Shown here: positions 21,497-22,383 of the stretch, piece after piece
Layout of the letters: the number at the start of each line of letters is the position of its first letter
How positions within the stretch are numbered: position 1 is the first letter of the stretch
NCBI RefSeq assembly: GCF_965641715.1
Contig: NZ_OZ282453.1
Reading direction: 5' to 3' (one strand)
DNA length: 64,000 nucleotides
From: Escherichia coli
GTDB lineage: Bacteria; Pseudomonadota; Gammaproteobacteria; Enterobacterales; Enterobacteriaceae
Made by a program: the position numbers and the translations under genes
Notes under the pieces: generated by a model
Databases searched by the model: none
Told to the model about the DNA's origin: nothing
What the model saw: only the letters and a program-made list of their open reading frames with translations

Positions 21497-21850
21497 TTGA
21501 TTGAGTGTTTGTTATACGGTCTAATGGTTTTTTCAGCATTAAATATTTATCATTCATATGGTGTGGGTAGAGTGAATATTGATGAGGCGTCGGGGTGTTT
21601 CATCCTTAGGCAGCGTATTGATATAGTCAATGCAGCACGAGCAAAGGCCTTCAGCCGTTTGACAGTTTTGTTCTGTGCTCCTGATCGTCTTTCGGGAAGA
21701 GACGTTATTATTCTGAATAGTGATGCTATACAGAGGGTTTGCGATGAGTTCATGGTTGCTAATTCAGAATTATTTGCTCTTGTTCAGGAGTACAACAGAA
21801 TAGCTAGGACCTGTGGTATGGATGAACTTCGGATTACTCATCTGGGGTAG
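21497..21850 (+). CDS. Hypothetical protein downstream of tRNAs
   Basis: 117-aa ORF, start uncertain, no family recognised. Confidence 0.35.
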   Translation: MIECLLYGLMVFSALNIYHSYGVGRVNIDEASGCFILRQRIDIVNAARAKAFSRLTVLFCAPDRLSGRDVIILNSDAIQRVCDEFMVANSELFALVQEYNRIARTCGMDELRITHLG

Positions 21851-22383
21851 ATACATATCTGGATTATCACCTGTTACGGTAAAAAGTGATTGCTTACTGT
21901 TTTTGTGAATGGCATTGCAGCAGCCGGATAATGTCAGTGCTGGCTGACGGTGTGCTGGTGGCGGGTGTGGTGGTTGTTGCTTTCCCGTTGCTGAAAAAGA
22001 AAACGCCAGACTGTTAGCCGGGTATCAGTTAGCGGGAGAAATTTTTAAATACTTCACAATTCAGGCGGTTGACTGTTCTCTGGTTTGCGGGGAGTTTGTT
22101 AAAAGAAACTGGCATGGTGAATCCCCCTGTGCGGAGGGGCAATCAGCGAGTAGGTATATGGGATAATCGCGGATTCAGGTGCTGGTACTGAATTCACCGG
22201 GAGGCACCCGGCACCATGCACTTCAATAGATTCTCTCCACATTATGGATATTCTTTCAGAATATCCCACGCAGACTTTGTGTAAATGTTAACAAATGTGC
22301 GTTTTATTTGATCTGATTCGCTGTTTGAGCATCCAAAACAACGGTATATATAATCCTTTACTATATGACATATGTGAGGAAAA

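Follow-up and report, generated by a model that had tools for sequence, protein, structure and literature searches.

We analysed positions 21497 to 22383 of a 64,000-nt stretch of Escherichia coli DNA (contig NZ_OZ282453.1, in the following the window), which lie between two phage transfer RNA (tRNA) genes and a pair of TolA-like lipoprotein genes. We consider it highly likely that this interval is made up of small cargo modules, lined up in the moron slot of a lambdoid prophage, which has the Q-controlled late promoter and terminator on its one side and the lysis genes on the other. The modules are a gene for a protein of ~92 amino acids (aa), a truncated DUF3927 gene, a copy of the STnc100 RNA with its own predicted promoter and its core, and a TolA-lipoprotein moron that is joined to the RNA copy at its 3' box. 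A preliminary description had seen here a 117-aa open reading frame (ORF) of uncertain start, followed by an AT-rich non-coding leader of ~530 bp. The ORF exists and the doubt about its start was justified. The 533 bp behind it are not a non-coding leader, as they hold both a DUF3927 coding sequence and the STnc100 RNA. They are also AT-rich only in their last part: the GC content is 0.331 for 22221-22383, compared to 0.457 for 21851-22082, 0.543 for 22083-22220 and a window mean of 0.489. The elements of the interval are as follows, where PGAP denotes the Prokaryotic Genome Annotation Pipeline.

21497..21850, + strand: phrog_2873 ORF, 117 aa with a TTG start; alternative starts are ATG 21524 and GTG 21572.
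21886..22017, + strand: gene for a DUF3927/TciB-like small membrane peptide, 43 aa (Pfam PF13064, phrog_1470, PGAP WP_000562553.1).
22076..22105, + strand: predicted STnc100 promoter, with the -35 element TTCTCT (22076-22081), an 18-nt spacer ending in TGT and the -10 element TAAAAG (22100-22105).
22083..22273, + strand: match to Rfam RF02076 (STnc100), 114 bits (gathering score 47), E 4.6e-25, model positions 1-206, full length.
22112..22219, + strand: STnc100 five-helix core, 108 nt, from the RNAfold minimum free energy (MFE) structure and the family consensus.
22193..22220, + strand: mosaic joint, a 28-bp overlap of the upstream and lipoprotein modules, from the break points of E. coli genome matches.
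22221..22383, + strand: AT-rich leader of the lipoprotein moron, 163 bp, 33% GC, in place of the usual STnc100 seed/terminator tail.
22325..22354, + strand: candidate sigma-70-like lipoprotein promoter TTGAGC-18-TATAAT (10/12), ending 30 nt before the ATG; predicted start ~22361.

The Rfam match, whose model spans promoter-proximal sequence as well as a 3' hairpin, assigns 22083-22273 to the prophage small RNA (sRNA) family of EcOnc27, sRNA103 and PasD. The copy lies on the sense strand in the late-region cargo slot of the prophage. To characterize the family we collected 146 copies from 129 loci, comprising viral contigs and E. coli loci. Common to the copies are two invariant boxes, GCATGGTGAATCCCCC..GGGGC on the 5' side and CACCGGGAGGCACCCGGCACCATGC on the 3' side, which enclose a variable middle. 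For 24 diverse cores RNAalifold returned a five-helix structure closed by GCAUGGUG/CACCAUGC, with compensatory changes in 16 of its 26 pairs. The MFE structure of the window RNA (22112-22275) reproduces this consensus and all helices of the core are intact: P1 is formed by GCAUGGUG and CACCAUGC, P2 by CCCCU/AGGGG (or, as folded by RNAfold, CCCCC/GGGGG), the variable helices are P3 and P4, and P5 reads CCGGG-AGGCA-CCCGG. With 100% identity the core belongs to the commonest type, seen in 54 of 141 sampled copies. In public records a pseudogene for a partial 'hypothetical protein' overlies this core on the minus strand (22099-22269; L001 4716-4856; L005 4112-4237; E2348/69). These calls are probably artefacts of the conserved RNA.

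Several members of the family have been studied. EDL933 carries 11 copies of which most are transcribed, and STnc100_4 is Northern-positive (PMC5331693). A copy located 75 nt downstream of stx2B overlaps the sRNA EcOnc27/sRNA103 (PMC12711010, PMC4104026, PMC7873438), which binds Hfq (PMC4104026, PMC12711010). This copy of enterohaemorrhagic E. coli agrees with the window copy in its five-helix core and the invariant boxes at either end, in its place in the cargo slot between Q/pR' and lysis, and in a promoter-like upstream motif. A 2026 preprint ties the EcOnc27/sRNA103 STnc100 to PasD of enteropathogenic E. coli (10.64898/2026.05.13.724894). PasD1 and PasD2 are Northern-positive and their stability was reported to be Hfq-dependent, yet the RNA-seq level was unchanged or higher in an hfq mutant (PMC8550237). 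The core of PasD1/PasD2 in strain E2348/69 (Pearl Mizrahi et al. 2021; Zhu, Shabalina and Storz, 2026 preprint) is related to that of the window, and the neighbourhoods are alike as well, with a DUF3927 gene directly upstream and cargo genes downstream. PasD differs in its diverged 3' box and in a longer 3' tail with a UGUGAG seed and a GGCUGCGCA...GCC-U8 terminator, neither of which is present in the window copy.

The promoter of the window copy is predicted by homology. A scan for canonical sigma-70 sites missed it because its -10 element, TAAAAG, lacks the T at the sixth position, and it was recovered by comparing copies. Across 26 upstream regions with less than 85% mutual identity the positions -13 to -8 were the most conserved (TTAAAA/TAAAAA) and TTG was favoured at -36 to -34. 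In some diverged copies a near-consensus TTGACG-17-TATATT occurs in the same register. RNA-seq coverage puts the estimated 5' end of PasD2 (NC_011601 741157-741328; PMC8550237 Table S6) on the G of GCATGGTG, i.e. on the G of the P1 strand GCAUGGUG, and this predicts that the RNA of the window copy starts at G22112. The -35 element of this predicted promoter is weak.

Downstream of the core the window copy departs from its family. A perfect-stem, GC-rich terminator is found ~31 nt after the 3' box in 103 of the 146 copies, typically as AGCCCCTCTCCGGAGGGGCT followed by Ts, and most of the remaining copies have imperfect or PasD-type terminators. Behind the typical terminators one often finds that of a convergent RNA of the AsxR/AgvB type, as described by Tree et al. 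The window copy lacks both and runs into the AT-rich leader and the coding genes instead: up to 130 nt from the 3' box a GC-rich hairpin with a T-run is missing, and the region 18000-26000 gave no Rfam match for an AsxR/AgvB-type convergent anti-sRNA at E-values up to 1. This type of tail occurs in 10 copies. Its only hairpin (22246-22266) is AT-rich and is followed by CACGCAG rather than by a T-run, and the PasD seed and terminator tail was not found in it. An Hfq-dependent sRNA ends in a Rho-independent terminator of its own, with poly-U at the 3' end and a single-stranded seed upstream of it; the window copy shows neither. Rfam likewise gave no riboswitch, thermometer or other known cis-element for 22221-22383, and for 22112-22400 the predicted fold has no unusual stability (z -0.79). 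The copy keeps the core and a predicted, family-typical promoter and has lost the usual tail and terminator.

The place of this loss coincides with a module boundary. The matches of E. coli genomes to 20991-23560 fall into two classes, one covering positions 1-1230 of the query (20991-22220) and the other positions 1203-2569 (22193-23559). The overlap of the two classes, 22193-22220, is the invariant 3' box of STnc100. Other prophage backbones carry the block 22193-23559 by itself (H57-H61; L004), and in strains 258E and M8, whose prophage backbone differs, the lipoprotein module stands behind a core of a very different type. JJ1886 has the upstream module of the window, followed there by a terminator and iraM. 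The window-type tail is followed by a TolA-like lipoprotein gene in all nine loci with enough flanking sequence and is found behind four different cores. Conversely, the exact 108-nt core of the window occurs in 54 sampled loci, where it is combined in 16 ways with 4 clusters of tails and 11 clusters of upstream sequences. The break points and these combinations identify a conserved RNA gene as the crossover point and place 22221-22383 within the lipoprotein cassette, so that we read the junction as the product of recombination at the invariant 3' box, which joined the STnc100 core to the lipoprotein moron. The window arrangement is kept at ≥99% identity in ~780 E. coli genomes, which could reflect recent ancestry.

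The cassette to the right of the joint continues beyond the interval with the following elements.

22384-22812, + strand: TolA C-terminal-domain lipoprotein gene 1 (Pfam TolA E 2.4e-23; phrog_5772).
22963-23358, + strand: TolA C-terminal-domain lipoprotein gene 2 (Pfam TolA E 1.3e-14; phrog_5772).
23484..23511, + strand: terminator-like site that closes the lipoprotein moron before the holin gene, AGCTCGCTACGGCGAGCT followed by TTTTATATTG (23484-23501 without the T-run), a consensus match only.

The two lipoproteins have the lipoboxes IIGC and VAGC, and a Shine-Dalgarno sequence (GAGG, 22376-22379) precedes the first start codon (ATG at 22384). A TATA-rich, promoter-like site had been proposed near 22340..22370 and is found there as TTGAGC-18-TATAAT at 22325-22354. 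This was the best site in the 2.2 kb scanned and one of three with a score of at least 10/12 on the + strand of the 64 kb, where none reached 11. The unit resembles the morons of lambdoid phages such as bor, lom and stx (Juhala et al. 2000), which combine a promoter-like site, cargo and a terminator-like site, have a lower GC content (here in the leader), are inserted in the late operon and move as a block. It differs from them in that its left boundary is the conserved 3' box of an sRNA gene and not intergenic 'junk', and in that its expression in lysogens is a prediction. PGAP lists the first lipoprotein gene in several genomes as a tolA pseudogene with a 'missing N-terminus'. The ORF 22384-22812 is nonetheless intact, with 142 aa, a signal peptide and the lipobox, and is annotated as intact in E. 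coli M8 and mEp460. Copies of the region of the second gene (22933-23361) with ~87% identity are present on E. coli plasmids of 75-160 kb, including O157:H7 plasmids (H92-H99). A search of the literature on prophage TolA-domain lipoproteins found nothing relevant.

At the left end of the interval the ORF 21497..21850 belongs to phrog_2873 (E 2.2e-69; residues 10-117 against profile positions 1-108 of 108), which is labelled 'unknown function' in PHROG. The profile begins at ATG 21524. A word-indexed search returned only close relatives from E. coli and Shigella, and an exhaustive search of 1.84 billion representatives gave 19 clusters. Among these are proteins of 91-95 aa with 32-62% identity that keep both the length and a conserved pattern (R23, FS, V32, PD37-38, N64, EYN). 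We regard GTG 21572 as the most likely start, since the distant homologues begin at the equivalent position (V-N-I-D-E) and the homologue in the viral contig L054 cannot begin further upstream. The coding sequence would then be 21572-21850 with 92 aa, and starts at ATG 21524 (108 aa) or TTG 21497 (117 aa) are possible. In other prophages (L007, L054) homologues also follow a Q-like gene and a tRNA. The AlphaFold2 model, computed from a small alignment, has a predicted local distance difference test score of 91 and consists of a helix (3-33), a beta-hairpin (39-46) and a second helix (50-81). Foldseek found no match to this model below E 0.01 in PDB and BFVD, and the top matches were prefoldin beta subunits (E 0.026) followed by generic coiled-coil hairpins. 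The ORF belongs to a real, narrow, prophage-borne protein family. A terminator-like hairpin, CGTCTTTCGGGAAGAGACG, with a T-rich tail lies inside the ORF at 21686-21713 (hairpin 21686-21704) and is likely due to chance.

The second gene is supported by Pfam PF13064 (E 1.7e-27, 95.6 bits against a gathering score of 25) and phrog_1470 (E 7.8e-13). With 43 aa the window peptide is 11 residues shorter than TciB of JLK-2012 (54 aa); the E2348/69 relative has 53 aa. In the alignment its first 12 residues are unrelated to those of its relatives and the first hydrophobic segment is gone, so the peptide does not show the full-length architecture of ~53 aa with two hydrophobic segments and we read it as N-terminally truncated and diverged. 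JLK-2012 TciB keeps the N-terminal hydrophobic segment. In Shiga toxin (Stx)-like phages such as JLK-2012 the TciA/TciB pair (TerB and DUF3927) resembles the window in that the DUF3927 gene lies directly upstream of STnc100, whereas the position of the TerB partner is taken in the window by the unrelated phrog_2873 gene. A kinship of the phrog_2873 protein with TerB/TciA was considered and rejected, as BLASTP gave no alignment at all. Profiles of PADLOC defence systems and NCBIfam matched neither the phrog_2873 ORF nor the DUF3927 peptide.

How the modules would be transcribed depends on the elements at the start of the slot, which are listed below.

20169-20990: Q antiterminator gene (Pfam Antiterm E 9e-55).
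21071..21098, + strand: tR'-like strong intrinsic terminator downstream of Q, from a terminator scan.
21134-21209, + strand: phage tRNA with a CAT anticodon (ARAGORN: Met; PGAP: Ile).
21310-21386, + strand: phage tRNA Arg(UCU), from ARAGORN and PGAP.

In lambdoid phages the pR' transcripts end at tR' unless the polymerase is modified by Q, and expression of the cargo in a lysogen hence needs local promoters. From this late-operon biology we infer the role of 21071..21098 as tR'. In the lysogen, transcription from pR' would thus stop there, and the interval offers two candidate promoters, that of STnc100 with a start near 22112 and that of the lipoprotein moron with a start near 22361. The latter is considered the main driver, i.e. 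the lipoproteins would be made mainly from 22325-22354. Because the STnc100 copy has lost both the GC-rich terminator and the seed tail, transcripts from G22112 may either read on into the lipoprotein genes or end by Rho or by processing. The copy would accordingly be either a read-through contributor or a tail-less relic. During lytic growth the Q-modified polymerase would read through the whole region. The preliminary description had suggested an independent lysogenic promoter or a regulatory RNA for the moron. In favour of this, a sigma-70-like site is present in a module that always travels with the lipoprotein genes, and the interval does contain a member of an sRNA family. This RNA is, however, widespread and independently mobile and has its own predicted promoter; it is not a leader that evolved for the moron.

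A second STnc100-like core in the window bears on the relation between core and cargo. On the minus strand at ~11270-11400, between dicF (11414-11465) and dicB (ATG 11238), we found a diverged five-helix core with 34.5 bits, below the Rfam gathering score of 47, and E 6.5e-6 in a 501-nt search. Its helices P2 and P5 show compensatory changes (CCGGG/CCCGG to CCTGG/CCAGG). It ends 18 nt before the Shine-Dalgarno sequence of dicB without a terminator in between, and it is also present in Qin of K-12 MG1655 (L131). Seen together with the lipoprotein arrangement, it leaves room for the reading that protein-coding cargo can have the core as its 5' leader. Late regions with several copies were observed as well: in E. 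coli M8 (L006 778-4253) four STnc100 copies flank iraM, a TolA-like lipoprotein gene and a DUF1737 gene, and in L054 (5013-7879) there are five, four of them in tandem at a period of ~260 nt, before nanS-p.

Several observations weigh against the interval being a string of modules with working promoters. The -35 element of the STnc100 copy has a rare G-to-C change at 22078 (TTGTCT to TTCTCT), found in 4 of ~141 sampled copies. The lipoprotein promoter was recognised only as a match to the consensus, and 5.9% of composition-matched shuffles of the 163-nt segment give such a site. Its critical -11 A is a G in the one diverged relative, E. coli M8, and a comparison of the window with the M8 copy (94% identity) shows no higher conservation for the leader than for the coding sequence. 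The ORF 21497..21850 is not annotated by PGAP, and several of its close relatives have frameshift-like differences. Finally, the STnc100 copy may simply be a recombination scar. If so, it would be a non-functional, tail-less relic whose conserved boxes serve only as a homology patch for the exchange of morons. The joint lies exactly at the 28-bp invariant box, the substitution in the -35 element is rare, and the seed tail and poly-U terminator, in which the function of PasD and other Hfq-dependent sRNAs resides, are gone. We nevertheless regard a mere scar as rather unlikely given that the core is identical to the commonest type and that all helices and the -10 element are intact. The conservation of the arrangement across ~780 genomes argues in the same direction, with the reservation about recent ancestry made above.

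The modules could also form one unit. In this reading a portable cassette, the STnc100 promoter together with the core as a structured 5' leader, would be active in the lysogen and give rise to a ~1.4-kb mRNA (22112-23511), and the site 22325-22354 would be secondary or inactive. No terminator separates the core from the lipoprotein genes, and the arrangement upstream of dicB, in the window as in K-12, is of the same kind. Members of the family are expressed, by RNA-seq or Northern blot, in cultures not reported as induced (PMC5331693, PMC8550237), and the mutated -10 element of the internal promoter in M8 would fit as well. Three points make us consider a single unit unlikely: the lipoprotein module also occurs behind the very different core type with a good promoter match of its own, an untranslated leader of ~160 nt that is richer in C than in G would invite Rho termination, and the conservation of the leader does not exceed that of the coding sequence. 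A plain AT-rich untranslated leader with the moron promoter and nothing else, next to an ORF of doubtful reality, fits the last 163 bp but is very improbable for the interval as a whole. A Pfam-supported coding sequence and a 114-bit Rfam match fill 70% of this supposed leader, the GC content there is 46-54%, and the ORF has distant homologues and a confident fold. The string of cargo modules, joined to the lipoprotein moron at the 3' box, thus remains our preferred reading.

A more general idea, which we put forward as distinctly doubtful, is that STnc100 core and promoter form a portable cassette of a lysogen-active promoter and leader that doubles as a homology patch for cargo exchange. Its 3' side would hold either a seed and terminator, as in EcOnc27 and PasD, or coding cargo, as with the lipoproteins and dicB, and expression of the cargo in the lysogen would depend on the core. 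All parts of the interval are catalogued (phrog_2873, DUF3927, STnc100, moron leader), the arrangement is slightly unusual and the novelty is low. For the annotation, three catalogued elements replace the 'non-coding leader'. Two features are of modest interest and can be tested, namely the fusion of an STnc100 core, without a terminator, to coding cargo and the service of the core as a joint for recombination. The locus cleanly illustrates how the invariant boxes of a prophage sRNA gene serve as the site of cargo exchange, and it shows an STnc100 copy in which protein-coding cargo has taken the place of the terminator. Should the core affect how this cargo is expressed, it would be a control part that lysogenic-conversion genes, toxin-adjacent ones among them, can reuse.

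The interval lies in the late region of a lambdoid E. coli prophage of the Qin/mEp460 type. Over 997 bp (21387 to 22383) the sequence is 100% identical to several E. coli chromosomes, e.g. O91:H21 FWSEC0008, and 99.8% identical to phage mEp460_ev081. The order in the window is Q antiterminator, tR', the two tRNAs, the cargo and then the holin and lysozyme genes for lysis. In the matching genomes the annotated neighbours are hokD, rem, ydfU, rusA, an antitermination protein, tRNA-Ile and tRNA-Arg, followed onward by a DUF3927 protein, two TolA C-terminal-domain proteins, essD, ydfR, rrrQ, rzpQ and cspI. A gene identical to the tRNA at 21134-21209 is annotated by PGAP as tRNA-Ile of the lysidine-modified Ile2 type. 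An Ile2-type tRNA is usual beside tRNA-Arg(UCU) in Stx-like phages.

Further sigma-70-like sites were detected in the 32%-GC spacer after tRNA-Arg. On the minus strand TTGACA-16-AACAAT (21448-21475, 10/12) faces back into the tRNAs, and a weaker site on the + strand (21452-21479, 9/12) faces the phrog_2873 ORF. Other Rfam matches above the gathering score were a sok antitoxin RNA, a cspA-type thermoregulator before cspI, IS009 and STnc560; the coordinates listed for these four matches are 17597-17771, 25371-25787, 49951-50149 and 61545-61759.

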